DNA of 64,000 nucleotides, from assembly GCA_035454885.1 (NCBI GenBank), contig DATIGE010000021.1, forward strand, positions 8,897-72,896. The letters run 5' to 3'. Shown here piece by piece: positions 11,608-57,312 of the stretch. Origin of the DNA: a bacterium (GTDB taxonomy: Bacteria > UBA10199 > JACPAL01 > GCA-016699445). Both the position numbers and the translations under genes were made by a program. The notes below the pieces were generated by a model, which was given only the letters and a program-made list of their open reading frames with translations, was not told the origin of the DNA and did no database searches. Numbering within the stretch: position 1 is the first letter of the stretch; the number at the start of each line of letters is the position of its first letter.

Positions 11608-11740
11608 GCCGGAAATCCAGCCCTCGTGCCGCATCACGTCAAAAAATGTGTCTTTTTTGGGACAGTTACGCTTCTTTTATCGGCAACCTTTGCCGTTCGC
11701 TGTCGATAAGGCGGTTAGGATAGGCACCCCTTGCCGGGGG

Positions 11741-15286: not shown

Positions 15287-15287
15287 T

Positions 15288-16301: not shown

Positions 16302-16310
16302 AGGAGAATC

Positions 16311-20411: not shown

Positions 20412-20421
20412 GGGAGTCTGT

Positions 20422-21387
20422 ATGTATACGACGGGATTATTGGGACAGCTCAATATGATGGCGGCGGGGCTCGGGAACTGGGTTCGCGCCGGGGCCCTGG
20501 CCTTGGGACTCTCCTCGATGAGCGGCGCGGTTGCTGGTTGCGGGTCCGGATCGGACCTTGGCGATTCGGGGATCGGTCCGATCGCCCCGCCGGATGGCAA
20601 TGACACGACGATCCCCAACACGCCCGAGGCCAATCTCGACGCCTGTCTCCCGGCCAATCCCCTGGGTAATCGCTTCAGCGTGCTTGTAGAAGGCGAGGGC
20701 GTCCGCCTGGGCGCGGGGACCCCGACCGACGGCAGCTTCCACATGGTCATGCCGAGTTCGAGTCTGACGATTTTGGGAAGCTCCGACGGACGGATCACGT
20801 TCCGCGGCCGCTTCAAATGGGACAGCGTCCCGTCCGAATGGGCGACGGTCGATCCCGACGCCCCGATCGGCCCTCTGGCCTTGTTCACCCAGGCCCGACA
20901 GTCCGGCCAGCCTCTCACGGACACGAATATGACCCGTGCGGGCCTGACCGGCCCCTGGGCGAATCAATTCCCGGCCTTCGCCGACAAGAACCGCGTGGGC
21001 TTCGCCTGGCCCGTGGAGGGCGTCCTCCATTTCGTCCGGGATTCGGCCGGCCATGTCTCCGATTGCGAGGTCGAGATGACCATCCGCTCCGCCGCCCGGA
21101 CCTCCAGCGGCATGGGACCCGCCCTGGACTACGGCGTCCTGTCGTTCTACGCGCCCCGCGCGGACGGCGAGGAGGCCATGGCGGAGGCGAATTTTGCCAA
21201 CGAAACCGTCGTCATCCTGGACGCTCCCATGGACGTCCTCTTGCCCGTCTCCGGTGAAGTCCAAGATGTCTGCGACGGCGATTGCGTCGACGTGCTCGGC
21301 GCCTCCAACCCCTCCCGCGTCCGCATGCGTCTGATCCGTTACACCCCAACGAGCGGAACGCCCGGCGACGGCGGTGCGGGCGGCTAG
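20422..21387 (+). CDS. hypothetical lipoprotein (321 aa)
   Basis: Signal and lipobox (AVAGC|GSGS). Starts 10 nt after the upstream stop. No known domain. Confidence 0.6.
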   Translation: MYTTGLLGQLNMMAAGLGNWVRAGALALGLSSMSGAVAGCGSGSDLGDSGIGPIAPPDGNDTTIPNTPEANLDACLPANPLGNRFSVLVEGEGVRLGAGTPTDGSFHMVMPSSSLTILGSSDGRITFRGRFKWDSVPSEWATVDPDAPIGPLALFTQARQSGQPLTDTNMTRAGLTGPWANQFPAFADKNRVGFAWPVEGVLHFVRDSAGHVSDCEVEMTIRSAARTSSGMGPALDYGVLSFYAPRADGEEAMAEANFANETVVILDAPMDVLLPVSGEVQDVCDGDCVDVLGASNPSRVRMRLIRYTPTSGTPGDGGAGG

Positions 21388-43199: not shown

Positions 43200-43924
43200 C
43201 CCTTTCGTTCCATCACCCTCACCGCCAAGACCGACAGTTCATAGAGCAGCAGGAGAGGGACGGCCAAGAGGACTTGCGATAGGACGTCCGGGCCGGGCGT
43301 CAGGATGCCGGCGATGAGGAACATCGCGACCAAGACATAGCGCCGCGCCTTGGTGAGCATCTCACGCCGGACGATTCCCGCTCGCGCCAAAAGGACGATC
43401 ACGAGCGGCATCTCGAAAACGAGTCCGAAGGTGAGGAGCATCCGCGAGATGAACCCCAGGTAGTCCTTCATTTGTGGCAGGAACTGGATGCCGGTTCCTT
43501 CCAGGGCTGAGACGAAGAAACGAAATCCGACTGGAAAGATGCCGTAGTAACCGAACAAGGCCCCGCCCAGGAAAAAGAACGTCGAGAAGAGAACGAATCC
43601 CGCTCCGAGGGTCTTTTCTTTCTGATGAAGCCCTGGGGCGATGAAGGCCCAGAATTGATACAGGACCAGGGGCGAGCTGAGGAAGGTCCCGGCCAGAAGG
43701 GCGACCTGGAGGTAGGTGATGAAAGCCTCGAGTGGGCTTGTCGCGATGAAACCCGAGCCCGCCGGCATCACCGCCAAGAGCGGTTTTTGAAGGAAAGAAA
43801 AGATTTCCTTCGAGAAATAAAGACAAGCCAGCGTTCCCACGCCGAGGCTGAGAAGCGCATAGATGAGCCTTTTCCGGAGCTCGATGAGATGTTGCACGAG
43901 GGTGAGCCGGAGGGTGTCCGTCAT
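43196..43924 (-). CDS. tatC: twin-arginine translocase subunit TatC
   Basis: LIELRKRL...6 TM helices with TatC signature blocks. Confidence 0.9.
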
Positions 43925-44091
43925 TTCGTGTCGTCTTCCTTGAATTCCGATTTGATTTCGTCCACCGTCCGCTGAACCTGGCGGACGAAACGCCCGAGCT
44001 TGCTGGCGAGCGACGGCAGCTTGTCCGGGCCGATGAAGATGACGGCCAGAATGAGGACGATCAGGAGCTCTCCGCTGCCCAAACCAAACAT
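43921..44091 (-). CDS. tatA: twin-arginine translocase TatA/E-family protein (56 aa)
   Basis: MFGLGSGELLIVLILAVIFIGPDKLPSLASKLGRFVRQ... Start at an internal Met of the long track ORF; overlaps the tatC start by 4 nt. Confidence 0.8.
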   Translation of the reverse strand: MFGLGSGELLIVLILAVIFIGPDKLPSLASKLGRFVRQVQRTVDEIKSEFKEDDTK

Positions 44092-44145
44092 GGGCCTCGT
44101 ATATCCGCCCGTGAAAGGGTTGTCAAAAAGTGGTATGGAAGCGTC

Positions 44146-45081
44146 ATGGCAGCAACCGGCGTCCTCTGGGATGCGCGTTACCTCGATCACGTCACCGGCC
44201 CCTGGCATCCCGAGCGCCCGGAACGTCTGGGCGCCATCCGTCAAGTCCTCACCGAGCGGCCCGTCGGAAAAATGGTGACGATGTTGGAGCCTCGTCCCGC
44301 GACGATCGACGAGATCGCCCTCGTCCACGACTTCGAATACGTCCGGAAAATCGAAAAGACGGCGGGTTTGGACGTCCCGCTCGATCCGGATACGTCCGCC
44401 TCCCCCGGAAGCTGGGACGCCGCCCGGCTGGCGGTCGGGGGGATTCTCAACGCGGTGGACGCCGTCTTTGAAGGAAAAGTGGCCAACGCCTTCGCCTTCG
44501 TCCGCCCGCCGGGCCATCACGCGGAAAGGGCCCGCGCGATGGGATTTTGCCTTTTCAACAACGTGGCCATCGCGGCCGAACACGCGATCCGGACGAAAAA
44601 TTGCCGTCGCGTCCTCATCGTGGACTACGACGTGCATCACGGCAATGGCACCCAGTGGGCCTTTTACGACCGGAGCGACGTCTTTTACATTTCCACCCAC
44701 CGCTATCCGTTTTATCCGGGCACCGGCTCGCGCCGCGAGGAGGGTGAAGGGAAGGGACAAGGCTACACGCTCAACGTGACCTTCCCCGGCGGGGAGGGTG
44801 ACCACGAATACTTGAAATCCTTCGACGACGTCGTGATCCCGGCCATGCGGGATTACCGCCCCGATTTCATCCTCGTCTCCGCCGGCTTTGACGCCCATCG
44901 CCTCGACCCGCTCGGCGGCATGAACGTGACCGCCGACGGCTTCGGCCGGATGTCGGAGGCGATCTTGAAGGTCGCGAAGGACTCCTGCGGCGGCAAGGCG
45001 GTGTTCGTCTTGGAGGGCGGTTACAGTCTGGAAGGCCTTTCGGAATCCGTGGAAAATTGCCTCATTCGATTGTCGCGGTAG
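44146..45081 (+). CDS. histone deacetylase-family (AcuC/HDAC-like) deacetylase
   Basis: FVRPPGHHAE...DYDVHHGNGTQ...EGGY motifs. Confidence 0.85.
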   Translation: MAATGVLWDARYLDHVTGPWHPERPERLGAIRQVLTERPVGKMVTMLEPRPATIDEIALVHDFEYVRKIEKTAGLDVPLDPDTSASPGSWDAARLAVGGILNAVDAVFEGKVANAFAFVRPPGHHAERARAMGFCLFNNVAIAAEHAIRTKNCRRVLIVDYDVHHGNGTQWAFYDRSDVFYISTHRYPFYPGTGSRREEGEGKGQGYTLNVTFPGGEGDHEYLKSFDDVVIPAMRDYRPDFILVSAGFDAHRLDPLGGMNVTADGFGRMSEAILKVAKDSCGGKAVFVLEGGYSLEGLSESVENCLIRLSR

Positions 45082-45132
45082 TCCGGCGCACGCCATCGGA
45101 CCCCTTGTATAAAGCAAAATAAGACACTTTCC

Positions 45133-45149
45133 TGGGGATAACTATTGCA
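45133..45149 (+). promoter_or_regulatory. possible sigma-54-type promoter upstream of Cys-rich protein 1
   Basis: cTGGGGATaactaTTGCAg with correct GG/GC spacing and a perfect -12 TTGCA. It lies 110-175 nt from the alternative starts, inside an unusually AT-rich intergenic region. Confidence 0.3.
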
Positions 45150-45258
45150 GATCTAAGGACTCTGATGTATGGCAGCTTCGACGCGGCCATTGTGACGCTG
45201 GACCCGGTAAGTCTCTGGAAATAATCGATGTTTTGAACCTGAAGAAGGCGGTAACACT

Positions 45259-47301
45259 GTGGACGGAAGACATCACGAGATACGACGTAGGAGGTACGTT
45301 GCCAGGATCATCCCTAGCGTCCTGATGGCCATCGGCCTGTATGCGGCGGCCGCGGCGTTTCCCATTGAGGCCCAGGCCGGCGATACCTGTTTCAGTCATA
45401 TGACCGGCAGCGGATGTGTGACCATCTGCACGGACGGTTCCGCCGAAGACACGCACCGGGACAACCATGGAGATCAGCCGTTCGGGTGCGAATGCGGCGA
45501 TGGCGTGTGTTTCGCCGTCGCGGGCGAGGACTGCAACACATGCCCGCAAGATTGCGGCGTTTGTCCCGGTTGCGGCGACTTGAGTATCACCCCGCCGGAG
45601 GAATGCGACGGATCGGCCTCGGCCTGCGCCGGCATCACGGGTTGCTCGGCCGACGGAAGCACGTGCGACTGCGACGGGTGCCGCTGCGCGCCCTTCTGCG
45701 TCGTCGACGGCGTCTGTAACGGCAGCGAGGATTGCGACAACTGCTCGGCCGATTGCGGCTCCTGTCCCGTCTGCGGCAACGGCGTCGTGGAATCGGGAGA
45801 GCAATGCGACGACGGGAACGGCGACGCGGCCGATTGCTGCGACAACAGTTGCTCCTTTACGACGAACGCCTGCGGGGACGGAAACGCCTGCAACGGCGAC
45901 GAAGTCTGCGCGAACGGCTCGTGCGGGACCGGCACGCCGTTGAGTTGCGACGACTCCAACGTCTGCAACGGGACGGAGACCTGCGATCCGCAATCCGGTT
46001 GCCAAGCCGGCGTCCCTCTGGATTGCGACGATCAGGACGCCTGTACGGACGACACCTGCGACTCGACGTTGGGCTGCGGTCACAGCACGATCGCCTGCTC
46101 CGACGGCGACCTCTGCACGACCGATACTTGCGATCCCTCCTCGGGATGTCTCTTTCCCACTTTGAGCTGCGACGACGGCGATGCCTGCACGAACGATGCC
46201 TGCGACGCAGGTCTCGGGTGTCAGACGTCTCCGACCGATTGCGACGATCAGGTGGACTGCACGACCGACGGCTGCGACCCCTCCCAGGGATGTCTGCACA
46301 CCCCGGATCACGGTGCGTGCGACGACGGCAACCCCTGCACGGACGACGTGTGCGATCCCGTGGAGGGATGCCGCAATGTCGTCGACGTCGAGAATTCCTG
46401 CAGTGACGGTGACGCCTGCAACGGCGTTGAGTCCTGCAATGCGAACGGGGGGTGCGATGCGGGGACGGTGCCCGTGTGCGACGACGGGAATCCCTGCACC
46501 GATGATTCCTGCGATTCCGCGACGGGGTGCGTGGCCGCAGCGGATGACACCAACAGTTGCTCGGACGGTGACGCCTGCAACGGCGCGGAAGCCTGCGTCC
46601 AGGGAAGCTGCCTCGGCAGCGCGCCTCTCGATTGCGACGACGGCAACGTTTGCACTGATGACGCCTGCATTCCCACCACGGGATGCGAGCATTCCGACAA
46701 CACGTCTTCCTGCGACGACGGTGACCCCTGTACGCCGGGCGACGTTTGCGCGGGCGGAGTTTGCGCCGGACGGGACGGCGACAACGACACCGTCGGCGAC
46801 GACTGCGACAAGTGTCCCGGCGGCAATGATCAGGTCGACTCCGACAAGGACGGCATTCCGAACGCCTGCGACAGTTGCGCCGGCGCGGCCACGGATGGCG
46901 ATGGGGATGGAACCCCCGACGCGTGCGATGTCTGTCCCGCGGACGCGACTGATGATTCCGACGGCGACGGGGTGTGCGACGGGGAGGACAACTGCCCGAA
47001 CGCCTCGAATTCCAGTCAAGCCGACGGCGATGCCGACGGCCTGGGCGATGCCTGCGACGATTGTCAGGATGCCAATTTCAACGGAACCTGCGACGACGAG
47101 GAGGGGACGTTGGCCGATGCGCCCGATGCGCCACCTCCACCGCCCGGCGGGGCGCCGACTCCCATGGGCGTGGCCGCGGGCAGGAACTGCCATCTGGTGC
47201 GGGGTGATGCCGCCAAGCCGGGGTCGGACGACCTGCTTCTGTTCCTCGCCGCCGCCGCCTTCCTCGGATCGGTGAGATTTTTTAGGCGTCTTGCGGATTA
47301 A
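45259..47301 (+). CDS. secreted cysteine-rich repeat protein 1 (Myxococcus-type Cys repeats plus TSP3-like Asp repeats), with a C-terminal hydrophobic/basic tail
   Basis: More than 15 repeats of CDDxxxCTxDxCDxxxGC. Followed by DGDGDGTPDACDVCPADATDDSDGDGVCD (TSP3/Ca-binding-like). C-terminus is ...GRNCHLVRGDAAKPGSDDLLLFLAAAAFLGSVRFFRRLAD. Start ambiguous: ATG 45259 with an RRRR n-region, or ATG 45325 giving MAIGLYAAAAAFPIEAQA. Confidence 0.75.
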   Translation: MDGRHHEIRRRRYVARIIPSVLMAIGLYAAAAAFPIEAQAGDTCFSHMTGSGCVTICTDGSAEDTHRDNHGDQPFGCECGDGVCFAVAGEDCNTCPQDCGVCPGCGDLSITPPEECDGSASACAGITGCSADGSTCDCDGCRCAPFCVVDGVCNGSEDCDNCSADCGSCPVCGNGVVESGEQCDDGNGDAADCCDNSCSFTTNACGDGNACNGDEVCANGSCGTGTPLSCDDSNVCNGTETCDPQSGCQAGVPLDCDDQDACTDDTCDSTLGCGHSTIACSDGDLCTTDTCDPSSGCLFPTLSCDDGDACTNDACDAGLGCQTSPTDCDDQVDCTTDGCDPSQGCLHTPDHGACDDGNPCTDDVCDPVEGCRNVVDVENSCSDGDACNGVESCNANGGCDAGTVPVCDDGNPCTDDSCDSATGCVAAADDTNSCSDGDACNGAEACVQGSCLGSAPLDCDDGNVCTDDACIPTTGCEHSDNTSSCDDGDPCTPGDVCAGGVCAGRDGDNDTVGDDCDKCPGGNDQVDSDKDGIPNACDSCAGAATDGDGDGTPDACDVCPADATDDSDGDGVCDGEDNCPNASNSSQADGDADGLGDACDDCQDANFNGTCDDEEGTLADAPDAPPPPPGGAPTPMGVAAGRNCHLVRGDAAKPGSDDLLLFLAAAAFLGSVRFFRRLAD

Positions 47302-47325
47302 CACGCTGTGGATGGGGAGATTTCC

Positions 47326-48708
47326 ATGTTCAAGCGGACCCGTGGTGTCGGTCTTGCGGTCGTTCTCCTAGCCGGACTCATCACCCATCCTCGTTCGGCC
47401 GGCGCCCTCAACGTCCAGCTGCTCCGGCCCGGCACGGGGCATGTTCAAGGGTTTCACCTCTTCACATCGGAAACCCTGCCGAAACACCGTTTGGCCGCCG
47501 GTCTGAATCTGAATCTGGCCAATCACCCCTTCGAACAGGTCCCGGTCGGAACGACCATCCGGACCACCGGCCTGGTCGACCGTTTCGTGACGGCGGACTT
47601 GCTCCTGTCCTATGGGGCCCTCGATTGGTTGACCTTGAACTTGGGGATGCCGGTCAACGTCTACCACGACATCGCCCCGACCCCGACGTCCGGACGGGAT
47701 CGCGGCGGCGGAGACGCCGGCGACCTCATCTTGAACGCCAAGATCCGCATCTTTGACGCCGAGAAGACGGGGTCTCATCTGGGACTCGCCGTCGTGCCTT
47801 TTGTGACCTTGCCGACGGGGAGACAGTCCATCTTTTTCGGGGATTCCTCGGTGACGGGCGGTGCCGTCGTGGCGGGCGACGCCCAATGGAAGTCGAACCG
47901 GTTCTACCTGAACGTCGGGGCCCGCTTCCGCGAGACGGAGACGATCGCGAATTTGACGGTCAAGCATGAGTTCGTCTTCGGCGGCGGTTTTCAGCGGCCG
48001 ATCGTCAAGAAGTGGGATTTGAACGTCATCGCGGAAGTCTTCGGTTCGACGACGCTGTCGAAAAATTTCGTCGTCCAGGACATCTCGACGCCTCTCGAAG
48101 GCATGGTCGTCCTGCAGAAAAAATGGTTGGAGAACCGGAATTTGATCACGCACGTCGGGGCCGGGGCGGGACTCACCAACGGTTATGGGGCGCCCAACGT
48201 GCGGGCGATCCTGGGCGTCTCGTATGCCTGGGATTTCAAGAAGGATGACAGACCCGCGCCCGTGGCCGTCCGCGAAGAGGTGATTGCGACGAGCAAGATC
48301 CACTTTGCCTACAATCGCTCGGAAATCCTTCCTTCGTCGCACGCCGTCTTGGACGACATCGTCCGGACGATCAAGGGGAGGCCGGAAATCCGGCAGGTTC
48401 GCGTGGAAGGGCATACCGACAGCCACGGCGCGGACGAGTACAATCAAAGGCTCTCCGAAAAGCGGGCCCAGGCCGTCATGCAATATCTCACGAACAACGG
48501 CATTCCGGCCGACCGGGTGACCGCCGTTGGGATGGGAGAAACGAAGCCGGTTGCGGACAATGTCACGAAGTCCGGCCGCGCGCAGAACCGGCGCGTGGAG
48601 TTCCACCTTCAGGTCGCGGAAGGGGCGAAAGTCCGCATCCGCGAATCCCAGGAAGCGGCCCCCACCTACGAACAGGGCGACCCCGGTGAGACCCGCCGTC
48701 GCCGCTGA
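47326..48708 (+). CDS. OmpA-family outer membrane protein 1 (about 300-aa N-terminal beta domain plus OmpA C-like peptidoglycan-binding domain)
   Basis: Signal peptide. C-terminal VEGHTDSHGADEYNQRLSEKRAQAV...GRAQNRRVEF. Confidence 0.85.
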   Translation: MFKRTRGVGLAVVLLAGLITHPRSAGALNVQLLRPGTGHVQGFHLFTSETLPKHRLAAGLNLNLANHPFEQVPVGTTIRTTGLVDRFVTADLLLSYGALDWLTLNLGMPVNVYHDIAPTPTSGRDRGGGDAGDLILNAKIRIFDAEKTGSHLGLAVVPFVTLPTGRQSIFFGDSSVTGGAVVAGDAQWKSNRFYLNVGARFRETETIANLTVKHEFVFGGGFQRPIVKKWDLNVIAEVFGSTTLSKNFVVQDISTPLEGMVVLQKKWLENRNLITHVGAGAGLTNGYGAPNVRAILGVSYAWDFKKDDRPAPVAVREEVIATSKIHFAYNRSEILPSSHAVLDDIVRTIKGRPEIRQVRVEGHTDSHGADEYNQRLSEKRAQAVMQYLTNNGIPADRVTAVGMGETKPVADNVTKSGRAQNRRVEFHLQVAEGAKVRIRESQEAAPTYEQGDPGETRRRR

Positions 48709-48843
48709 TCCCTCCAAAACCCTCTCAAATTGATAAAGCCTGATAAGGCCTGGGTGCTGATTGACCCGATTTCTCGGCACCGCGGCGGGGCCGTTTCCTT
48801 ATTTTTCAGGCCCTTAACGACGATGCCCGTGCTCATGACGCAA

Positions 48844-48861
48844 TTGGTAAACGTCTTGCAC
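48844..48861 (+). promoter_or_regulatory. possible sigma-54-type promoter upstream of Cys-rich protein 2
   Basis: TTGGTAAacgtcTTGCAc, i.e. GG-N10-GC with a perfect -12 TTGCA, about 40 nt upstream of the ATG at 48899. The -24 element is imperfect. Confidence 0.35.
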
Positions 48862-48898
48862 TAGCCCCCGATGACGAATCACAAAGTTGGGGGGAGTT

Positions 48899-51721
48899 AT
48901 GAAGGTCATCCGAGTGCTTGTAACGTTCGGTTACAGAATTCTGGGACGTCTCTTCCTCCCATTTGCCGTCCTCGGGATTGGCCTGCTCCTGGTGCCGAGC
49001 GAAGCCGAGGCGGCCCGATCCTGCGTCTGCCACAATATTATCAACAACCCCAACGAAGTCTGCGCCGCCAGCCGTTCTGTTCTTGAAACAGGACACGCAA
49101 GTCACGTTGCCGACGGAAAAGATCGTTACGGCACTTGCGACAGTTGCGGCGATGCCATCCTGCAATGTTGCACTTTCGTACCAAACACCTCGCCTCCGGT
49201 CGCCGATGAATGTTGCGTGGTCGACTGTCAGGGGCAGGCCGAGATTTCGCCGGGAGTTCCCTGCGTCGCCGATCCCAATTGCGGAACGAACGGCGACGGC
49301 TCCTCGCTTCCCCAGTGCTCCCAGGAGGAGTGCGATGACGGCGACAATGATTGCAGCACCAACGATTGCACCCCGGACTGCAAATCGACGCCGAGCTGCG
49401 GCGACGACAATGTTTGCACCGATGATTTCTGCTGTAATGGTTCCAATGATCCGGATCCGCTTTGTTCCGAGGCGGGCGTCTGTGTGAACAAAAACAACAC
49501 CGATCCATGTGATGATGATGATGAGTGCACCGACGGCGACGTCTGTCAAAGTGGAGTTTGCGTCCCAGGGGGTCCCAAGGATTGCAGCGACGGACTCTTC
49601 TGTACCCAAGATCTTTGCGATCCGGCGACGGGCTGCGACTGGAGTCAACCCACCGAATGCTCGGACGGAACCGTCTGCACCACGGACACGTGCAACGAGG
49701 ACAACGACCAGTGCGAGTTTCCCGGGATTAGTTGCGACGATTTAGATGCCTGCACCGATGACAGCTGCGATGCGGAAAAGGGATGCGGTCATTCTCCGCA
49801 CGATTGCGACGACAACAACCGATGCACTGACGACAGCTGTAATTCGGAGGATGGCTGCCATTATGCCTCCCATGATTGCGACGATGAAAAGACCTGCACG
49901 GACGACAGTTGCGATCCGGTAGAGGGCTGCGGTCACTCGCCTAACAATGGATCCTGCGATGACGGCAACCCTTGTACCGACGACGTCTGCAACCCTTCGG
50001 GGTGTGAGGAAGGGGACGAGACGTGCGTCCAAGACGAAAATTTCGAAACAAACGGTTGTATCCACATCTATAATGATTCCGGGACCGCCTGCGGCGATGA
50101 AAGCGATACCGACTGTGATAATCCGGATACCTGCGACGGACGCGGGACCTGTCAGGACAACAACGAGGACAACGGGACGGAGTGCACGACCGACGATAAC
50201 GCATGCACGGACGACGTCTGTTCCGAAGGTGTCTGCACGCATCCCGCCGATGATCAGAACTCCTGCGACGACGGGAACGCCTGTACTCGTGACGCTTGTA
50301 CGAGCGGGGAATGCGTCGGCACCGACATCTCGGCCGAATGCCCGGATGACGACAATGCCTGCACGGATAAGAGCTGCGATCCGAAATCCGGTTGCGGTCA
50401 AACCAACGACGACAGCAACGAATGCTCGGACGGCAACGCCTGCACGAGCGACGCCTGCTCGAGCGGGGAATGCGTCGGCACCGACATCTCGTCCGAATGC
50501 CCGGATGACGACAATGCCTGCACGGATAAGAGCTGCGATCCGAAATCGGGTTGCGGTCAAACCAACGACGACACCAATCAATGCTCGGACGGCGACGCCT
50601 GCACGAGCGACGCCTGCTCGAGCGGGGAGTGTGTCGGCACCGACATCTCGGCCGAATGCCCGGATGACGACAATCCCTGCACGGATAAGAGCTGCGATCC
50701 GAAATCCGGTTGCGGTCAAACCAACGACGACAGCAATGAATGCTCCGATGGCAACGCCTGCACGACCGTCGATGTCTGCAGCGAGGGTGAATGCCTCGGC
50801 AGCGTACCGCCGATCTGCGACGACCAAAACCCCTGCACGGACGACTCCTGCGATCCGAATGCAGGCCAGAAAGAGGTTGCTCGCTTCATCAGCGAGACGC
50901 AGCCCGTCGACCCGTGCGTGCATACGCCAGACGTGACCAACGAGTGCACCGACGGCGATGCCTGCAACGGTCTGGAGCAATGCGTCCTCTTGCTGGACGG
51001 CGATGTCGTCTATGGAGCGGCATGCGAAGCGGGTACGCCTCCCAACTGCGACGACAACAACCGGTGCACGGGCGAGACGTGCGATCCGGCGGTGGGCTGC
51101 GTATCCGTCCCCCTGCCCGATACGGACGGGGACCACATCCCGAACGTTTGCGACGTCTGCACCGGCGGGGACGATGAGGTGGATGGAGACGGGGATTCGG
51201 TCGCCGACGCCTGCGATAACTGCCCCAAGAATTCCAATTCGAGTCAGTCGGATTCGGATGGAGACGGCCTGGGCGACGCCTGCGACAACTGCCCCGACAT
51301 CGCCAATCCGGACCAGGCGGACTCCAACGGGAACGGCGCCGGGGACGCCTGTGACGACGAAGGCGAATTGGCGAGCTGCATCGCCCTTCCCGGAAACGAA
51401 CCCCCCGAGGTTCTGTTCGGTGCGGCCGAGAAGACCAAGGGTGTCATCACGATCCCGGTGTCGATCGTCGATCCCGAAGGGGATAATTTCACGACAACCT
51501 GCTCGGTGGATGAGGGCACGGTGGCCCTGGGCGAGGGTGTTGTGACCTACACGATCCCGACGCCCCTCGATCCGAAATCGGACGGTCTGATCACCGTGAG
51601 CTGCACGGTGGGCGACTCCGGGAGCTGCCAGGAAAAGACCTTCAAGACCGTAGTCAGCATCGGCGTGGCGGGGGATCAGCTGGGCAGCGGATGCTCCCTA
51701 TTGCCGTCGAGTCCAAAATAA
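48899..51721 (+). CDS. secreted cysteine-rich repeat protein 2 (paralogue of 45259..47301)
   Basis: Signal peptide MKVIRVLVTFGYRILGRLFLPFAVLGIGLLLVPSEAEA. About 20 Myxococcus-type Cys repeats, including three near-identical 52-aa units. TSP3-like Asp repeats. Ends ...GSGCSLLPSSPK. Confidence 0.8.
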   Translation: MKVIRVLVTFGYRILGRLFLPFAVLGIGLLLVPSEAEAARSCVCHNIINNPNEVCAASRSVLETGHASHVADGKDRYGTCDSCGDAILQCCTFVPNTSPPVADECCVVDCQGQAEISPGVPCVADPNCGTNGDGSSLPQCSQEECDDGDNDCSTNDCTPDCKSTPSCGDDNVCTDDFCCNGSNDPDPLCSEAGVCVNKNNTDPCDDDDECTDGDVCQSGVCVPGGPKDCSDGLFCTQDLCDPATGCDWSQPTECSDGTVCTTDTCNEDNDQCEFPGISCDDLDACTDDSCDAEKGCGHSPHDCDDNNRCTDDSCNSEDGCHYASHDCDDEKTCTDDSCDPVEGCGHSPNNGSCDDGNPCTDDVCNPSGCEEGDETCVQDENFETNGCIHIYNDSGTACGDESDTDCDNPDTCDGRGTCQDNNEDNGTECTTDDNACTDDVCSEGVCTHPADDQNSCDDGNACTRDACTSGECVGTDISAECPDDDNACTDKSCDPKSGCGQTNDDSNECSDGNACTSDACSSGECVGTDISSECPDDDNACTDKSCDPKSGCGQTNDDTNQCSDGDACTSDACSSGECVGTDISAECPDDDNPCTDKSCDPKSGCGQTNDDSNECSDGNACTTVDVCSEGECLGSVPPICDDQNPCTDDSCDPNAGQKEVARFISETQPVDPCVHTPDVTNECTDGDACNGLEQCVLLLDGDVVYGAACEAGTPPNCDDNNRCTGETCDPAVGCVSVPLPDTDGDHIPNVCDVCTGGDDEVDGDGDSVADACDNCPKNSNSSQSDSDGDGLGDACDNCPDIANPDQADSNGNGAGDACDDEGELASCIALPGNEPPEVLFGAAEKTKGVITIPVSIVDPEGDNFTTTCSVDEGTVALGEGVVTYTIPTPLDPKSDGLITVSCTVGDSGSCQEKTFKTVVSIGVAGDQLGSGCSLLPSSPK
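50314..50781 (+). repeat. three tandem copies of a near-identical 156-bp (52-aa) unit inside Cys-rich protein 2
   Basis: Unit reads SGECVGTDIS[AS]ECPDDDN[AP]CTDKSCDPKSGCGQTNDD[ST]N[EQ]CSDG[ND]ACTSDACS. The DNA copies differ at only a handful of positions, and the period is 156 nt by offset of the repeated gcgtcggcaccgacatctcg strings. Confidence 0.8.
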
Positions 51722-51780
51722 GGTAAAGGGCATTCCCATCATCATAATACAGAAGCAGAAGTGCAAGCCCGGGGGGGCTT

Positions 51781-53133
51781 ATGAAAAAGACGCTGTGCCT
51801 CGTAGTGGGTGTCCTCGCCGTCTCGTTCGCCGCGCTTCCAAGATCCTGGGCCTTGAACGTCCAACTCCTCCGCCCCAGCACGGGGCACGTGAAGGGCTAC
51901 CAGCTCTTCACCTCCGAAACATTGCCTAAATACACGCTGGCGGCGGGCCTCAACGTCAATTTCGCCCATCACCCGTTTGAATTGACCATCGCCGGCACGA
52001 CGAGCCGGGTCCTGGGCATCGTCGACCGGTTCGTGACGGCGGATTTTCTGGTCTCCTACGGCCTGACTAATTGGTGGACGATCAACGTCGACATGCCGCT
52101 CAACATCTACCACGACATCGCCCCGACGTTCATCGCGACGCGGGACCGGGGAGGCGGGGATCCGGGCGACCTGGGAGTCAACATGAAGTTTAGGGTCTTC
52201 GACGCGAACGAGACCTCCACCGGCCTGGGGCTGGCGTTTGTTCCGTTTGTCACCGTCCCGACGGGCCGCCAGTCGGTCTGGTTCGGCGATGAGAACCTGA
52301 CGGGCGGAGCGATCCTGGTGGGCGACGCCCAGTGGAAAGCGAACCGGTTTTACCTGAACGTGGGCGGGCGTTTCCGGGAGAGGGAGCAGGTCACGAATCT
52401 AATCGTCAAGAATGAGCTCCTTTACGGCCTCGGTTTCACGCGTCCGATCGTGAAGGACTGGGACTTCAACATCATTCTCGAAGTTTTCGGTTCGACGAAC
52501 TTCCGGAAGTTCGCGACGGAGAACATCTCATCGCCGATCGAAGGCCTGGCGATTCTTCAAAAGAAGTGGGGTGAGAACCGGAGACTCATCACGCACGTGG
52601 GCGGGGGATTCGGGATTACGAACGGTTACGGCGTTCCCACGTGGCGGGCGCTCATCGGCGTTTCCTACGCTTGGGATTTGAAGCCGGCGCCCAAACCGGT
52701 CCGCGAAGAGGTCATCACGACGAACAAGATCCACTTCGCCTTCGACAAGGCCGAAATCAAGCCGTCGTCGTATCCCGTCATCGATGAAATCATACGCACC
52801 ATCCAAAGCAAGAATGTCGTCGCCGTGCGTGTCGAAGGCCACACGGACAGCTACGGGACGGACGCGTACAACCAAAAGCTCTCGGAACGGCGGGCCAACG
52901 CCGTCATGAATTACCTGACCTCACACGGGATACCGGCCGAAAAGGCCAGCGCGGTCGGCATGGGAGAGTCGAAGCCGGTCGCGGACAATGCAACCAAGGC
53001 CGGCCGCGCGGAAAACCGGCGTGTCGAATTCCACCTCGAGATCCCCGAGGGTTCGAAGGTCAGGGTGCAGGAATCCAGCCAAGAGGCCCCGCATTACGAG
53101 GAGGGCGATCCGGGCGGGCGCCCAAGAAAATAA
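51781..53133 (+). CDS. OmpA-family outer membrane protein 2 (paralogue of 47326..48708)
   Basis: Collinear similarity along its full length to OmpA-like 1 (ALNVQLLRP.TGHV.G..LFTSETLPK...). OmpA C-like domain VEGHTDSYGTDAYNQKLSERRANAV. Confidence 0.85.
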   Translation: MKKTLCLVVGVLAVSFAALPRSWALNVQLLRPSTGHVKGYQLFTSETLPKYTLAAGLNVNFAHHPFELTIAGTTSRVLGIVDRFVTADFLVSYGLTNWWTINVDMPLNIYHDIAPTFIATRDRGGGDPGDLGVNMKFRVFDANETSTGLGLAFVPFVTVPTGRQSVWFGDENLTGGAILVGDAQWKANRFYLNVGGRFREREQVTNLIVKNELLYGLGFTRPIVKDWDFNIILEVFGSTNFRKFATENISSPIEGLAILQKKWGENRRLITHVGGGFGITNGYGVPTWRALIGVSYAWDLKPAPKPVREEVITTNKIHFAFDKAEIKPSSYPVIDEIIRTIQSKNVVAVRVEGHTDSYGTDAYNQKLSERRANAVMNYLTSHGIPAEKASAVGMGESKPVADNATKAGRAENRRVEFHLEIPEGSKVRVQESSQEAPHYEEGDPGGRPRK

Positions 53134-53227
53134 GCATCTGGTTTTAAAGGCCTTTTTAAGTAAGTAAATATTGATTTATCGAATTGATTGTCTGGCGCCT
53201 CAGGCCGAATTCGGTTAAAATCAATCG

Positions 53228-54790
53228 GTGAAAAGACGCGTCTCCCGTCGTCATTCCCATCATCGCAAGAAATGGCCTTTTCCTCTGGTTCCCGCCATTG
53301 CGGCGACGACGGCGGTCTTGGTATTGGCCCTGGTCATCATCCTCAAGCGCGCGGGACCGCCCCAAGTCGCCGCCGTGCCGCCGCTTCCCCAAAGCCGCAG
53401 CATGCAGCCCATGAGGCCGGAACCGGCCGCAAGGCCATCCATGCCGTCCGTGACGGCTCAGCCGGCCGCGCAGACCGCCTTGAAGCGTCCGGTTTTCGTG
53501 GCGGCGCCGGATCCGCGTTGCCACAGGCTGGGTCGCCTGAACGCCTCGTTCTACCGGTGCGGAGAGAGCTTGATTCTTTTGAAGGAAGGGGCGGAGTTTC
53601 CGGAGGACCTCAAGTCCGCGCCGTGGCAGAGGACGCTCGGCGAATTGATGAATCGCGGATTGATCGACGGCGCTTTGGCCACGGAGAAGGGGGACATCAC
53701 CCTCGCGACGGTCCCGAACGACGCCCGTTTCGCCGATCAGACGTTCTTGAACGGTGACGCCCCGTACGACATCGGCGCCCTGGACGCCTGGAGCGCCGTG
53801 ACGGGCAGCCCCGACCTGACGGTCGCGATCCTCGACAGCGGCATCGATCTCGTCCATCCGGACCTCCAGGCCAATCTTTGGACCAATGAGGGCGAAGTTC
53901 CCGGCAACGCGACGGACGACGACGGCAACGGGTATATCGACGACGCCAATGGCTATAATTTCAACGCCGCAACGGCCGACAACCAGGACGACAAAGGGCA
54001 CGGGACGCACGGGGCGGGGGTTATCGGCGCGGTGGGCAACAACGGGATCGGAATCGCCGGGATCAACTGGAACGTGAACCTCCTGCCGCTCAAGATCACG
54101 GACGCAGACGGCAAAGCCTCGCTGGCTGCGGCCGTGGAGGCGATCAACTACGCAATAGAAAACAACGCGAAGGTCATCAACGCCAGTTGGGTCATGAGCC
54201 TTTCGACGCCCGAGAAGGTCAATCTCCTGCAGACGGCGGTTCAGAACGCCGTGAGCGCGGGGATTGTCTTCGTGGCGGCCGCCGGCAACAACGCGGGGCA
54301 GGATCTTGACGCGTCGCCCCTGTATCCCGCGTCGTTTGATTTGCCGGGGGTCGTGACGGTCGCGGCGGTCGATGCGGACCGGGTGCTCGCTTCGTTCTCC
54401 AACATCGGCGCCAATTCCGTCGACCTGGCGGCTCCGGGAATGGGCATCCTGTCGACCGCGATCGGAGGGGACTTCAGTTCGTCCGCCGGGACTTCGGTCG
54501 CGGCGACCGTCGTGAGCGGCGCGGCCGCACTCCTGCTGGCCCAAAAGCCTTCTCTCAGCCCCGCCGAAGTCAGAAACGTCCTCATGGAGACCGCGACGGC
54601 CTCCCCGTCGCTTTCCGGCAAGACGGTGAGCGGCGGATCGCTCAACTTGAAGGCGGCTCTGGCGGCCGTGGGGGCTTCCGTGGGGTCTTCGGATTCCTCG
54701 GGAGAACCCAAATCGGACGTGGCCGCCTCGGCGGCCAAATCGACCTCTTCGGGGTCGTCCGGAGGCGGCTGTTCGTTGGCGGGGCCTTAG
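53228..54790 (+). CDS. subtilisin-like (S8 family) serine peptidase with an N-terminal signal-anchor
   Basis: Catalytic triad blocks AILDSGID (Asp), HGTHGAGVIG (His), GTSVAATVVSGAAALL (Ser). Ends ...SSGGGCSLAGP. Confidence 0.88.
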   Translation: MKRRVSRRHSHHRKKWPFPLVPAIAATTAVLVLALVIILKRAGPPQVAAVPPLPQSRSMQPMRPEPAARPSMPSVTAQPAAQTALKRPVFVAAPDPRCHRLGRLNASFYRCGESLILLKEGAEFPEDLKSAPWQRTLGELMNRGLIDGALATEKGDITLATVPNDARFADQTFLNGDAPYDIGALDAWSAVTGSPDLTVAILDSGIDLVHPDLQANLWTNEGEVPGNATDDDGNGYIDDANGYNFNAATADNQDDKGHGTHGAGVIGAVGNNGIGIAGINWNVNLLPLKITDADGKASLAAAVEAINYAIENNAKVINASWVMSLSTPEKVNLLQTAVQNAVSAGIVFVAAAGNNAGQDLDASPLYPASFDLPGVVTVAAVDADRVLASFSNIGANSVDLAAPGMGILSTAIGGDFSSSAGTSVAATVVSGAAALLLAQKPSLSPAEVRNVLMETATASPSLSGKTVSGGSLNLKAALAAVGASVGSSDSSGEPKSDVAASAAKSTSSGSSGGGCSLAGP

Positions 54791-57312
54791 AGATTATTTA
54801 AGTCCTTAAAGAGAAAATCCACGCCCCGGCTCGCGGGGGCCTCGCCACTGGGAATCGCCAGATCCTCGGGTTTTGGAGCCGCGTCCTCCAGGGCCGAGCC
54901 TCCCGTCATCGAGTCGATATTGGCGAGTTTGATGTACGCGGGCTTCGCGAAGTCCAAGACCGGCCGATCCTTCAACGCCTCCTCCATGTAGTAGAGCCAG
55001 ATAGGCGCCGAAACCACGCCGCCAGTCATGCCCGGACCGATCTTCTTGCGGCTGTCGTAGCCGGTCCAGACGCCCGTGATGAGGTCGGGTGTGAAGGCGA
55101 CGAACCAGGCGTCGGACTCGTCGTTGGTGGTCCCCGTCTTGCCGGCCGCCGGCCGCTTGAGGGACTTTGCCTTGAATCCCGTGCCGTGGTCGATGACGTC
55201 CGTCAAAAGGTTGGTCATGAGAAAGGCCGTCTGAGGGCTGATGACGTGTCCCGGCGGGATCGAGGCTCCGTAGAGGATGCGTTTTTCCTCCGGAGTCACC
55301 TTGAGATTCTCCTTCTCGATGACCTTTTCGCCCTCCGCCAGAAGCTCGCCGTTGAAGCCCGCGCCGGAGCCGCTCCCGGGGACGTCGAAAACGTGCGCGG
55401 CATCCGCGACCGCGGGCCGGTTCTCCTCGAGTACGTTGCCGTCCTTGTCCACGATCTTGCGGATGAAAAGGGGGGTGGGCCTGACCCCTCCCGCGGGGAA
55501 AGTGGCGAAGGCGCGCGTGAGGTCGAAGAGCGTCACATCCGAGGCCCCGAGGGCCGTTGAAAGGTAACGCGCGATGGGCGTCGAGATTCCGAGTTTACGC
55601 GCGTAGGCCACCGTGTAGTCGATGCCGATGTCGTGGAAGACCTTGACCGCGATGACGTTGTTCGAATGCGTGATGGCGCTCCGCACGGGCATGGGACCGT
55701 TGTGCTTGCGGCTGTAATTCTCGGGGCTCCAGAACCGGTTGCGGCCCACCTTGTACTCGACCGGGGCGTCGATGACCGTCGTGCCGGGCGTGTAGCCCTT
55801 GTCCAGGGCGGCGGAATAAACGATGGGCTTGAACGCCGATCCCGGCTGACGGATCGCCTGGGTCGCGCGGTTGAACTCGCTGCGCTTGAAGCTGAAGCCG
55901 CCGATCATCGCCTTCACCTCGCCCGTCAGGGGATTGAAGGAGAAGAGCGCGGACTCGAGCTTGGGTTCCACCTCGATGGTGAACTCGCCGTCGGCCGTCC
56001 GGCGGACCCAGTAGATTTCGCCGACCTTGGGCGTCCGCCCCGTCCACTTGCGGTTCTCGGGGGGGATTGTCCCTTCCGCGTGACCGACGACCACCGTCGC
56101 GGTGCCCTGGTCGTCCACGGCCGAGATCACGCCCCGGTAGATGTGGCCTTCCTCGATGGGCGTGGAGAGCGGGGGAATCTCCGGATTGGGAGGCATGCGG
56201 ATCGGTTCGTCCAACTCCGTGAGCTGCAGGTGGACCTGGTCCGCGAATTCCCGGATCTTGTCCGGCGCGACCCTCTCCACGGGCCCGTGGAAGCCCTTGC
56301 GGCGCTCCACCTCCAAGAGTCCGCGCTTCACGGCGCGGTCGGCGGCCTGGTAGTCGGCGAGATTGACCGTCGTGTGGATCTTGAGTCCTCCCCCGTAGAG
56401 CGTCTGTTGGCCGAAGTTCTGCTCGATCGTCCGGCGCACGTGTTCCACAAAATAGGGCGCGTATAGGTCGTTAAAATCCTTGTCGATGCCCGCGCGATAG
56501 AGAGTCAGCGGGGCCTTCAGGGCCTCCTCGTATTCGGCCTTCGAGATGTACCGATTCTCGAGCATTTGGGAGAGCACGTGCTCCTGGCGCAGGCGCGCCA
56601 TGGCGGGATTGACGAGCGGGGAGAAGGCCGTCGGGGCCGAGGGGAGTCCCGCGATCATCGCCGTCTCCGCAAGCGTCAGCTCCGTGATGTCCTTGTGGAA
56701 ATAATTCCGCGCGGCGGCCTGGACGCCGTGGGCCCGGTTCCCCAAAAAGATCTGGTTCAGATAGATGTAGAGGATCTGCTCCTTCGTGAAATTCTGCTCG
56801 AGCTGCGTGGCGAGGATGGCCTCCTTCACCTTGCGGTCGAAGCTTTTCTCGCGAGAGAGGACGAGGGAGCGGGTGACCTGCTGGGTGATCGTCGATCCTC
56901 CCTGCACGACCTTGCCCGCCCGGAGGTTTTCGAAAAAAGCCCGGAGGATGCTCTTGAAGTCGACGCCCTTGTGGTCCCAAAAACGCTCGTCCTCGGACGC
57001 CACGAAGGCGTCGATCACGCGGCGCGGGATCTTCTCGTAGGGCAAGAGATAGCGGCACTCCTGCCAAAATTCGCCGATTTTCGAATTGTCGTCGGCGAAC
57101 ACCTCGCTCACGAGCAGGGGCTTGTAGTCGGCGATGCCCCCGAGCTTGGGCAGGTCCTTGGCGAAGTGGTAATAGAGGACGCTGGTGCCCACGACGAAGA
57201 CGCCGACGGCGATTGCCAGGAGTCCGAAGGCGACTTTGAAGAGGCGGCCGACGCCCTCGAGGACGGTGGACACGTTTCGCACCTCATTTAAGATCCCAAG
57301 ACCGATTCGCAC
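54787..57312 (-). CDS. mrcA: class A penicillin-binding protein (PBP1A; glycosyltransferase plus transpeptidase)
   Basis: Glycosyltransferase motifs EDERFWDHKGVD and GGSTITQQ. Transpeptidase motifs SAFKP, SHN-like and KTGT. Confidence 0.9.
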   Translation of the reverse strand: MRIGLGILNEVRNVSTVLEGVGRLFKVAFGLLAIAVGVFVVGTSVLYYHFAKDLPKLGGIADYKPLLVSEVFADDNSKIGEFWQECRYLLPYEKIPRRVIDAFVASEDERFWDHKGVDFKSILRAFFENLRAGKVVQGGSTITQQVTRSLVLSREKSFDRKVKEAILATQLEQNFTKEQILYIYLNQIFLGNRAHGVQAAARNYFHKDITELTLAETAMIAGLPSAPTAFSPLVNPAMARLRQEHVLSQMLENRYISKAEYEEALKAPLTLYRAGIDKDFNDLYAPYFVEHVRRTIEQNFGQQTLYGGGLKIHTTVNLADYQAADRAVKRGLLEVERRKGFHGPVERVAPDKIREFADQVHLQLTELDEPIRMPPNPEIPPLSTPIEEGHIYRGVISAVDDQGTATVVVGHAEGTIPPENRKWTGRTPKVGEIYWVRRTADGEFTIEVEPKLESALFSFNPLTGEVKAMIGGFSFKRSEFNRATQAIRQPGSAFKPIVYSAALDKGYTPGTTVIDAPVEYKVGRNRFWSPENYSRKHNGPMPVRSAITHSNNVIAVKVFHDIGIDYTVAYARKLGISTPIARYLSTALGASDVTLFDLTRAFATFPAGGVRPTPLFIRKIVDKDGNVLEENRPAVADAAHVFDVPGSGSGAGFNGELLAEGEKVIEKENLKVTPEEKRILYGASIPPGHVISPQTAFLMTNLLTDVIDHGTGFKAKSLKRPAAGKTGTTNDESDAWFVAFTPDLITGVWTGYDSRKKIGPGMTGGVVSAPIWLYYMEEALKDRPVLDFAKPAYIKLANIDSMTGGSALEDAAPKPEDLAIPSGEAPASRGVDFLFKDLNNL

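Follow-up and report, generated by a model that had tools for sequence, protein, structure and literature searches.

Each of the two tandem gene pairs described here, A1-B1 and A2-B2, is proposed to encode a surface unit of two proteins that resembles TraAB: a surface stalk with a lipid anchor (the A protein) would dock on a barrel tethered to peptidoglycan (the B protein). This reading, regarded as fairly probable, is carried by the domain content of the proteins, the 12-strand fold of the B proteins, their homology to TraB, the conserved adjacency and fusion of A and B, and a correlation between the C-terminal tag of A and the subtype of its barrel. The pairs are followed by a gene for an S8 subtilase and lie within a stretch of 64 kb, termed the window. 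Judged by sequence comparison, the locus is a distantly related variant of the TraA/TraB design, which serves cell-cell contact in myxobacteria.

Gene organisation and the A proteins

The five open reading frames to which the earlier note drew attention are all present on the + strand, as two collinear A-B pairs and then the subtilase (Table 1). At present these genes carry only the labels "OmpA family protein" or "hypothetical". The intergenic gaps measure 24 nt (A1-B1), 59 nt (A2-B2) and 94 nt (B2-S8), and A1 and B1 share one reading frame, with one stop codon and eight codons between them. The spacing alone suggests an operon structure; promoter and terminator scans of the locus gave results no better than those for shuffled sequence. 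Duplication of the pair as a unit, proposed previously, is borne out by the B proteins, which are 64% identical over their full length, and by the A proteins, which are 34-40% identical through the repeats. In the DNA, B1 and B2 lie about 4440 nt apart and share 70-77% identity. It is proposed that A1-B1 and A2-B2 are old, diverged paralogues, each with its own cognate specificity. No rRNA or tRNA genes were found in the 64-kb window, and the best named relatives of a methylmalonyl-CoA mutase encoded in it belong to 'Deltaproteobacteria bacterium' genomes (72-79% identity).

Table 1. Positions of the genes and of their features within the window.
Feature	Position	Strand	Description
A1	45259-47301	+	secreted Cys-rich stalk protein, 680 aa
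A1 signal peptide	45259-45378	+	by inspection, ...FPIEAQA/GDTC
A1 Dicty_CTDC-type repeats	about 46024-46668	+	
A1 TSP3-like repeats	46837-47064	+	
A1 full tripartite tag	47167-47298	+	GVAAGRNC(644)HLV, 12-aa spacer, helix, RFFRRLAD
A1 tag hydrophobic helix	47233-47274 (residues 659-672)	+	LLLFLAAAAFLGSV
B1	47326-48708	+	ATG 47326 inside ORF 47308-48708; 460 aa; TraB-like
B1 signal peptide	47326-47403	+	
B1 12-stranded barrel	47404-48240	+	AlphaFold2 model
B1 OmpA peptidoglycan-binding domain	48304-48591	+	
A2	48887/48899-51721	+	secreted Cys-rich stalk protein, 940 aa
A2 signal peptide	48899-49012	+	by inspection, ...PSEAEA/ARSC
A2 internal tandem repeat	50270-50765	+	159 nt (53 aa) x 3.1 copies, 92% identity
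A2 short tag	51671-51718	+	GDQLGSGCSLLPSSPK-stop, without transmembrane helix
B2	51781-53133	+	450 aa; TraB-like
B2 signal peptide	51781-51849	+	
B2 12-stranded barrel	51850-52683	+	AlphaFold2 model
B2 OmpA domain	52735-53019	+	
S8 subtilase	53228-54790	+	secreted, 520 aa
S8 domain	53816-54604	+	Pfam Peptidase_S8 PF00082, 178 bits (cutoff 21.8)
S8 short tag	54761-54787	+	GGGCSLAGP-stop

The A proteins contain 89-113 cysteines each, with a composition of 13.1% Cys and 17.2% Asp in A1 and 12.0% Cys in A2, and the mature N-terminus of both is a Cys/His-rich module. The Cys repeats that the earlier note had described as of Myxococcus type are present, although they belong to the Dicty_CTDC type (Pfam matches of 72 and 62 bits in A1 and A2, cutoff 27), with only one sub-threshold DUF4215/myxo_disulf-like copy. 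A1 has 7 copies of the motif C.D..C[TN].[DE].C and A2 has 12, against about 0 expected in shuffles. Thrombospondin-type-3-like repeats were likewise recovered at the motif level (D.D.DG..D..D.C, four times in A1 and once in A2, about 0 expected in shuffles) but not as a Pfam TSP_3 match. The internal tandem repeat of A2 is a recent lengthening of the stalk, and the C-terminal Ig-like module of this protein is common to the related loci L001, L005 and L007. Overall, the A proteins evolve fast and have a mosaic make-up, while B is conserved. Neither A1 nor A2 matched PA14 (Pfam) or TIGR04201 at E<=0.01, and none of the TraA models was matched by either protein. A different gene of the 64-kb window codes for a protein with TIGR04201 repeats.

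The B barrel and its relation to TraB

AlphaFold2 models of the two B proteins (pLDDT 80 and 78) display 12 long strands together with the OmpA domain, which scores 91 bits against Pfam OmpA in B1 and B2 alike. The N-terminal domain is thus larger than the 8-strand OmpA barrel, as the earlier note had supposed. The best fold matches of the barrel are FapF and COG4313, and a search of the PDB with the barrel sequence profile gave no match at E<=1. When the OmpA domain was removed, the barrel queries matched only the NCBIfam profile NF033763 (TraB), with E-values of 4.7e-20 and 5e-18 and query residues 2-268 aligned to profile positions 20-289 of 522. Whole B proteins score 166 and 173 bits against NF033763, far under its curated cutoff of 700. 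By this profile comparison, the B barrel is homologous to the TraB barrel; to judge by the E-values, TraB branches off remotely within a large superfamily of barrels, in which function may have diverged. The linker connecting barrel and OmpA domain is about 17 aa long (LKPAPKPVREEV...) and has no TSP3 motif, a motif found in the linker of 17 of 123 representative relatives. The most conserved part of B is the N-terminal segment 24-51, with 81% column identity, while the extracellular loops gave no clear sign of a hypervariability that would set the partner specificities of B1 and B2 apart.

The homology and the architecture shared with TraAB, the mosaic character of A beside a conserved B, the recent repeat expansion in A2 and the TIGR04201 protein of the window would also agree with a special case of the TraAB-like unit, namely a true outer-membrane-exchange or kin-recognition fusogen with two specificities. 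This is considered quite improbable, as A is devoid of the PA14-like variable domain that serves TraA as its homotypic-recognition element, B has no TSP3 linker and falls far under the TraB cutoff, and the literature states that "OME is restricted to myxobacteria" (PMC12045341).

Coupling of A and B, C-terminal tags and the subtilase

An exhaustive profile search with the barrel returned 4364 representative matches at E<=1e-3, the best 144 of which were examined; word-indexed homologue searches stopped at 42-44 close relatives, without TraB among them, and a search with a 5-sequence barrel alignment led to only 2 genome loci. All 15 barrel genes with readable neighbours adjoin a gene for a secreted protein with a C-terminal Cys tag (13 upstream on the same strand, one downstream and one divergent), an adjacency that holds in relatives down to about 40% identity. 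The passengers beside the barrels vary widely and include Cys-rich, TSP3, VWA and 2000-aa adhesin-like proteins. Among the best 144 of the 4364 representative matches, 123 carry the OmpA domain and 32 are fusions, in which passenger, Cys tag, helix, basic cluster, signal peptide and barrel follow in this order, mostly with OmpA too. Tag type follows barrel subtype, with a full-tag partner beside B1-type barrels (3/3) and a short-tag partner beside B2-type barrels (5/5). Functional coupling of exoprotein and barrel had been argued from duplication of the pair; because of the adjacency, the fusions and the tag-barrel correlation, the case is now much stronger than duplication alone would make it, and the coupling is strongly supported by comparative sequence evidence. 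The same three observations disfavour the view that B is a generic envelope protein (a COG4313-like uptake channel or OmpA-family structural protein) with incidental Cys-rich neighbours. That view is very improbable, even though one relative weakly matches Pfam Phenol_MetA_deg (PF13557) and sources label the B proteins only as OmpA family proteins.

Of the roles suggested previously for the barrel, that of an anchor partner is the best supported, while a two-partner-like export route is not supported. Transporters of two-partner secretion (TpsB/Omp85) have 16 strands and POTRA domains; B has a 12-stranded barrel and is without POTRA domains. A related possibility is that each B serves its A as a dedicated translocator in the outer membrane, in the manner of an autotransporter or FapF. 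The barrel would then export its partner or expose it at the surface, and the pair would work as a type V-like secretion unit that is split. The fusions, with the passenger before the barrel, recall the layout of autotransporters, adjacency is strictly 1:1 whatever the passenger type, and the conserved N-terminal segment of B could be a plug. Against this, A with its many cysteines would fold and form disulfides in the periplasm, which makes it too bulky for a 12-strand pore, and the fusions have no linker through the pore, because their passenger and barrel are kept apart by a cleavable tag, then a helix and a second signal peptide. In addition, no Pfam autotransporter or POTRA / ShlB match was found, and in M. 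xanthus TraA reaches the surface via the type II secretion system, with TraA and TraB localising independently (PMC11980579, PMC12045341). A translocator is considered unlikely.

In the TraAB-like unit favoured here, A would be exported by Sec, fold in the periplasm as a rigid, disulfide-rich, calcium-binding stalk and be sorted to the surface through its C-terminal Cys tag. By analogy with TraA, the tag Cys would be lipidated, a CPBP-type sorting protease would trim the tag and an existing secretion system would move the folded protein to the surface; neither a CPBP sorting protease nor type II secretion genes were found among the scanned ORFs of the 64-kb window. B would be inserted in the outer membrane as a 12-stranded barrel and would bind peptidoglycan through its periplasmic OmpA domain. 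With its membrane-proximal end A would dock 1:1 on its own B, full-tag A1 on B1 and short-tag A2 on B2, and such docking would couple the surface stalk mechanically to the cell wall, in the service of adhesion or of contacts to other cells or surfaces.

The tags differ in layout. A1 has all three parts of the tripartite arrangement (Cys motif, helix and basic tail), and this full tag is retained by its orthologues in L013 and L014. In A2 and the subtilase the chain stops 5-8 residues after the tag Cys, without helix or basic tail, and the short ending of A2 is conserved in orthologues from L001, L005, L007 and L014. None of the three tags matched TIGR03901 (MYXO-CTERM, cutoff 20 bits) even at E<=10, while one fused relative scores 17.1 bits. 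No curated model of C-terminal sorting tags fits those of the window, the tail of the subtilase giving a weak JDVT-CTERM match (E 0.21). As read from sequence, the layout of the full tag is like that of TraA, while the short tags are without the helix that the published sorting model needs.

The subtilase has an ordinary signal peptide, a Ser/Gly-rich tether and a short Cys tag as in A2. The earlier note had put it forward as a candidate maturase, for example one trimming the short tags of the A proteins. Its location on the same strand 94 nt after B2, its identical position in L005 and L007 and a best NCBIfam match to the processing protease mycosin (TIGR03921) would suit that role, although the mycosin score of 155 bits is below the cutoff of 278.75. 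In L001, L008 and L013 no such gene follows the barrel, nor does one in any distant relative with a known downstream gene (L003, L004, L009-L012 and the P0035 locus); it is kept in some close relatives and in these only. Moreover, among solved structures its closest relative by far is deseasin MCP-01, a secreted collagenolytic subtilase (E 1e-68). Because it carries the short Cys tag itself, the subtilase looks like a substrate. Probably it is cargo, a further client of the same sorting route that would be tethered at the surface, and maturation of A by this protease is improbable.

The locus and its relatives suggest that the design of a Cys-tagged protein with a barrel-OmpA partner is far more widespread and modular than TraAB and MYXO-CTERM imply, and the fusions and the tag/barrel matching provide independent genomic evidence for a 1:1 working unit. 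The helix-less short tags pose a puzzle, that of a C-terminal Cys signal working without a membrane anchor. Rather speculatively, TraAB might be just the part known so far of a large, undescribed class of surface modules with two components, a Cys-tagged surface protein and a dedicated 12-strand barrel-OmpA protein, with a new kind of sorting signal in this lineage. Such a class would extend through uncultured 'deltaproteobacterial' lineages; its representative barrels would number in the thousands, and its genes would often be fused. The new signal would be a helix-less C-terminal G-G-C-[SA]-L tail, ending 4-10 residues after the Cys, that recalls the CAAX box, is common to a stalk protein and a subtilase and is matched to its own barrel subtype. 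Contact-dependent functions such as outer-membrane exchange, or new C-terminal lipid anchoring, may then exist outside Myxococcota.

Comparison with TraAB and other known systems

The arrangement had not been recognised as a described system, but its barrel is homologous to that of TraB, and with a tagged Cys-rich surface protein beside a barrel-OmpA partner it is laid out like the traAB operon of myxobacteria and like MXAN_5598, a fused protein (PMC3325183, PMC11980579). In myxobacteria traA and then traB form a bicistronic operon; in TraA a signal peptide and a variable domain precede a Cys-rich stalk, the repeats of which reportedly resemble Pfam00526, and a Cys tag, while TraB comprises a barrel, TSP3 repeats and an OmpA domain, and the two form a 1:1 complex in which AlphaFold puts the TraA base on the TraB barrel (PMC3325183, PMC12045341, PMC11980579). 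The present pairs share the two-gene unit on one strand with the surface protein first and the barrel second, the signal peptide, Cys-rich repeat stalk and C-terminal Cys tag of A, the signal peptide, homologous barrel (E 5e-20) and OmpA domain of B, and the combination of a variable A with a conserved B. The TraA tag (PQGGAFCC, 13-aa spacer, helix, RPRRPAR; PMC11980579) likewise has its counterpart in a Cys, a spacer of about 13 aa, a helix and a basic tail. In contrast to TraA, A has no PA14-like variable domain and its repeats are of the Dicty_CTDC rather than the TIGR04201 type, two types that resemble each other according to Pathak et al. (PMC3325183). The TSP3 repeats reside in A, whereas in TraB they occupy the linker; the tags fall short of the cutoff of the MYXO-CTERM HMM, and in one of the tag types the membrane helix is missing; gaps of 24-59 nt separate the genes, which overlap in myxobacteria; and the pair is tandemly duplicated.

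MXAN_5598 is a fused adhesin with an internal MYXO-CTERM, an outer-membrane barrel and OmpA (PMC11980579). By published architecture only, its order of parts is that of the 32 fused relatives. Here A and B are separate genes, and because A1 and B1 share a reading frame this pair is one stop codon from the MXAN_5598 arrangement. Typical MYXO-CTERM cargo includes adhesins and proteases. The A1 tag resembles the signals of the MYXO-CTERM/myxosortase system (MrtX, CPBP family) in being tripartite with an invariant Cys, while the A2 and S8 tags differ from both MYXO-CTERM and JDVT-CTERM/MrtJ signals in having neither helix nor basic tail. MYXO-CTERM sorting has been treated as confined to Myxococcota and Bradymonadales (bioRxiv 10.1101/2023.06.07.544157).

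Type Va autotransporters also place a passenger before a 12-stranded barrel. In the present pairs, passenger and barrel are separate, or in the fusions divided by a cleavable tag and a second signal peptide, and the passenger is disulfide-rich. FapF, COG4313 (Pput2725) and KdgM/NanC are 12-stranded barrels as well, with sequence similarity to the solved chains that is not detectable; B differs from them in its C-terminal OmpA domain and in having an obligate tagged-protein neighbour in place of an amyloid or uptake operon.

Organization of the locus and its surroundings

The five genes of the locus were read individually, and the arrangement described in the earlier note, two pairs of exoprotein and barrel genes (A1-B1 and A2-B2) followed by an S8 subtilase gene (S8), all on the forward strand, is real. 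A1 and A2 are secreted Cys-rich stalk proteins and B1 and B2 are their barrel partners. Within the pairs the genes are 24 nt (A1-B1) and 59 nt (A2-B2) apart; wider spacers precede A1 (177 nt), A2 (~180 nt) and S8 (94 nt). Further out the neighbourhood is of housekeeping character, comprising genes for acyl-CoA carboxylase subunits, methylmalonyl-CoA mutase, TatC and a branched-chain amino-acid ABC transporter. The 398-residue reverse-strand ORF that overlaps the deacetylase gene is largely an artefact; its TatA/B/E match is limited to the first-translated stretch, and the syntenic relative L008 carries a 53-residue TatA at the equivalent position.

Coordinates of the features discussed (positions refer to the window unless a related locus, L, is named)
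Feature	Position	Strand	Remark
Second cluster, five genes	10474-21387	+	377, 1212, 337, 1366 and 321 aa
ORF overlapping deacetylase gene	43921-45117	-	398 aa
TatA/B/E match of this ORF	~43921-44080	-
Histone-deacetylase-family gene	44146-45081	+	5' flank of five-gene locus
A1	45259-47301	+	680 aa
Cys/His motif, A1	45379-45560	+
A1/B1 junction	47299-47328	+
B1	47326-48708	+	460 aa
A2	48899-51721	+	940 aa
Cys/His motif, A2	49013-49170	+
Tandem repeat, A2	50270-50765	+
Short tag, A2	51671-51718	+
B2	51781-53133	+	450 aa
B2 residues 24-51	51850-51933	+
S8 subtilase	53228-54790	+	520 aa
Short tag, S8	54761-54787	+
Class A penicillin-binding protein gene	54787-57312	-	3' flank of five-gene locus
A protein of L001	7614-9875
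Short tag, L001	~9850-9875
Short tags, L005	~5310-5351, ~8440-8468
Short tags, L007	~140-181, ~3440-3469
Short tag, L008	~7790-7844
Short tag, L014	~3290-3329
Called starts of S8 orthologues	L005 6966; L007 1871
Barrel-only locus, L011	443-7903

In relatives the locus occupies the same syntenic place, between the deacetylase and penicillin-binding protein genes, and its composition differs. L014 displays an A1-like gene (full tag, i.e. with helix), a B1-like gene, an A2-like gene (short tag GSGCALVR, without helix) and a B2-like gene, L005 two B genes followed by S8, and L007 the tail of A2, B2 and S8, while single pairs lacking S8 were found in L001 (A2/B2-type), L013 (A1/B1-type) and L008. 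It follows that the tandem arrangement is old and that it varies among close relatives.

A second cluster of five genes in the window includes a 1212-residue protein that matches the TraA-type Cys repeat TIGR04201 (Myxo_Cys_RPT) with 26.6 bits (cutoff 25). Several of its proteins begin with signal-peptide or lipoprotein-like sequences, and GC3 was 0.86-0.89 for the two largest ORFs (1212 and 1366 residues), which were those checked. Pfam returned no match for four of the five proteins, the 337-residue ORF being scanned against NCBIfam only.

Barrel proteins and their obligate linkage to A proteins

B1 and B2 share 64% identity over the full-length proteins and 70-77% at the DNA level, and each contains an OmpA domain (Pfam, 91 bits). 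AlphaFold2 models built from 33-34 homologues (pLDDT 80 and 78) place 12 long strands ahead of the OmpA domain in both proteins, in agreement with the earlier suggestion of a barrel larger than the ordinary 8-strand OmpA type. No solved structure was detectable by sequence for the barrel. The most conserved stretch of the whole protein comprises the first 28 mature residues, ALNVQLLRPSTGHVKGYQLFTSETLPKY (B2 residues 24-51, with an equivalent in B1), which show 81% mean column identity and are modelled with high confidence without regular secondary structure; this segment may act as a plug or occupy the lumen, as happens in FapF and COG4313.

The top NCBIfam match of B1 and B2 is NF033763, the outer-membrane exchange protein TraB of the Myxococcus xanthus TraA/TraB pair, and with the OmpA domain removed the barrel matches this family only (E values of 4.7e-20 and 5e-18), the match extending over almost the entire domain. 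Full scores of 166-173 bits lie far under the curated cutoff of 700; thus, the B proteins are TraB homologues outside the TraB family proper. An exhaustive profile search with the barrel domain retrieved 4364 representative proteins at E<=1e-3, of which 203 reach E<=1e-30, and the OmpA domain is present in 123 of the best 144 matches examined. Barrel-only members of ~300 residues (L011 and the related proteins P0027, P0030 and P0031) likewise lie after a large tagged TSP3_bac protein (2166 residues), so some lineages can dispense with the peptidoglycan-binding domain.

Neighbourhoods were read for 15 barrel genes (two each in the window and L014, and one each in L001, L003, L004, L005 and L007-L013); at a sixteenth locus a gene of 1005 aa lies upstream. 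A secreted protein with a C-terminal Cys tag adjoins the barrel gene in all 15, located upstream on the same strand in 13, downstream in L009 and divergently in L012. None of these 15 sits beside unrelated genes alone; the pairing is conserved, and the functional coupling of each exoprotein to its barrel proposed in the earlier note is well supported. Fusions account for 32 of the best 144 of the 4364 matches, with the order passenger, Cys tag, helix, basic cluster, signal-peptide-like helix and barrel. Their passengers are diverse (Cys-rich, TSP3/Asp-rich, VWA or Ig-like) and their tag consensus is roughly QG[SG]G..C[SAG]L, followed by 8-15 residues, the helix and R/K. A1 and B1 share a reading frame, with nothing but the A1 stop codon and eight codons between them, and the fused form is therefore one mutation away: loss of this stop would give the passenger-tag-barrel architecture of the 32 fused relatives and of MXAN_5598, the fused adhesin-tag-barrel-OmpA protein of M. 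xanthus.

Stalk proteins, C-terminal tags and the subtilase

By inspection, A1 and A2 display signal-peptide-like N-termini. They are rich in Cys (13.1% and 12.0%, respectively) and Asp (17.2% and 16.2%), and contain 7 and 12 copies of the motif C.D..C[TN].[DE].C and 4 and 1 copies of the TSP3-like motif D.D.DG..D..D.C, essentially none of either being expected in shuffled sequence. Pfam identifies the Cys repeats as Dicty_CTDC (72 and 62 bits, cutoff 27) and a single sub-threshold copy of DUF4215, while Pfam and NCBIfam scans revealed no match of A1 or A2 to PA14, TIGR04201 or TIGR03901 (MYXO-CTERM). A tandem repeat in A2 (159 nt or 53 residues, 3.1 copies, 92% identity) indicates that the length of the stalk has changed recently. 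The A protein of L001 is A1-like over its N-terminal 150 residues (65% identity) and A2-like over its C-terminal 160 (52%). Partner barrels are 63-82% identical across close syntenic loci and are thus conserved while A proteins are mosaic, a pattern that suggests that modules have been shuffled in the surface component.

A Cys/His motif, C-x-C-H ... G-H, is common to the mature N-termini of A1, A2 and the A proteins of L001, L003, L008, P0048 and P0049 (e.g. GDTCFSH..HRDNHGDQPFGCEC, ARSCVCHN..GHASH, CICHG..GHDCH and RxCYCHNIC..GHQKS). It has no family match, may bind metal and is located at the distal tip of A, where TraA carries its recognition domain.

The A1 tail, GVAAGRNC-HLVRGDAAKPGSDD-LLLFLAAAAFLGSV-RFFRRLAD, has a Cys and a 12-residue spacer ahead of a hydrophobic helix and a basic tail, the same layout as the tag of TraA, PQGGAFCC-GTTADATPAGSTT-FLLLLAAGLTFL-RPRRPAR (PMC11980579). 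The A2 (GDQLGSGCSLLPSSPK) and S8 (GGGCSLAGP) tails retain the Cys motif and lack the helix, for which there is no space ahead of the next gene. None of the three tags reaches any curated sorting-tag model. Short tags, G-(S/G)-G-C-[STA]-L plus 2-10 residues and a stop, terminate stalk proteins and the S8 subtilase across six independent assemblies, counting the window. They do not fit the published MYXO-CTERM model, which requires a helix; CAAX-like recognition is only an idea. Tag type follows barrel subtype, with the full tag in 3/3 B1-type partners and the short tag in 5/5 B2-type partners.

S8 is missing from all distant relatives examined and is confined to a narrow clade around the window. 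Its orthologues have ordinary signal peptides and tails of GGGC[SA]L plus 2-3 residues. In the source assemblies of L005 and L007 their starts are called too far downstream, and normal signal peptides, MILPHRFLACSILFAAVLFSPSAQS and MTQPLWAAALLVVSSLMSSG, are encoded in frame further upstream. The nearest solved relative is deseasin MCP-01, a secreted collagenolytic subtilase (E 1e-68 vs ~1e-35 for other subtilisins). Given this distribution, short tag, signal peptide and kinship, S8 is more plausibly cargo carried by the same sorting route than the candidate maturase proposed previously.

Proposed assembly and relationship to TraAB

By analogy with TraAB and MYXO-CTERM sorting (PMC11980579, PMC12045341), A would be exported by Sec and form its disulfides in the periplasm, after which its tag Cys would be lipidated, a CPBP-type protease would trim the tag and the folded protein would be moved to the surface. 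B would be an outer-membrane barrel tethered to peptidoglycan, on which the base of the cognate A would dock 1:1, coupling the stalk to the cell wall. Neither a sorting protease gene nor genes for type II secretion can be seen within the 64-kb window. That B serves instead as the translocator for A is less likely, because a 12-strand pore cannot pass a protein with ~45-55 disulfides, TraA uses a type II secretion system, and TraA and TraB arrive at the outer membrane independently of each other (PMC11980579, PMC12045341).

The docking arrangement has a parallel in the 1:1 TraA:TraB complex, for which AlphaFold predicts that TraA sits on the TraB barrel by its membrane-proximal end (PMC12045341). 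In TraA, a signal peptide and a PA14-like variable domain precede a Cys-rich stalk and MYXO-CTERM; its repeats are said to resemble Pfam00526, and it is encoded ahead of TraB in a bicistronic operon (PMC3325183). In TraB, TSP3 repeats lie between a barrel and an OmpA domain (PMC6372800, PMC12045341). Pfam00526 is the family matched by the A proteins of the window. The arrangement, initially taken as undescribed, thus follows the TraAB/MXAN_5598 layout already in the literature, with a barrel homologous to TraB. The interest of the locus rests mainly on the helix-less tags and the breadth of the module. The barrel superfamily that includes the B proteins far exceeds in size what the searched literature describes. 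The window version nevertheless departs from TraAB in several defining features, and its A proteins lack the TraA recognition domain; the system represents a rearranged and distantly related version of the TraAB/MXAN_5598 design.
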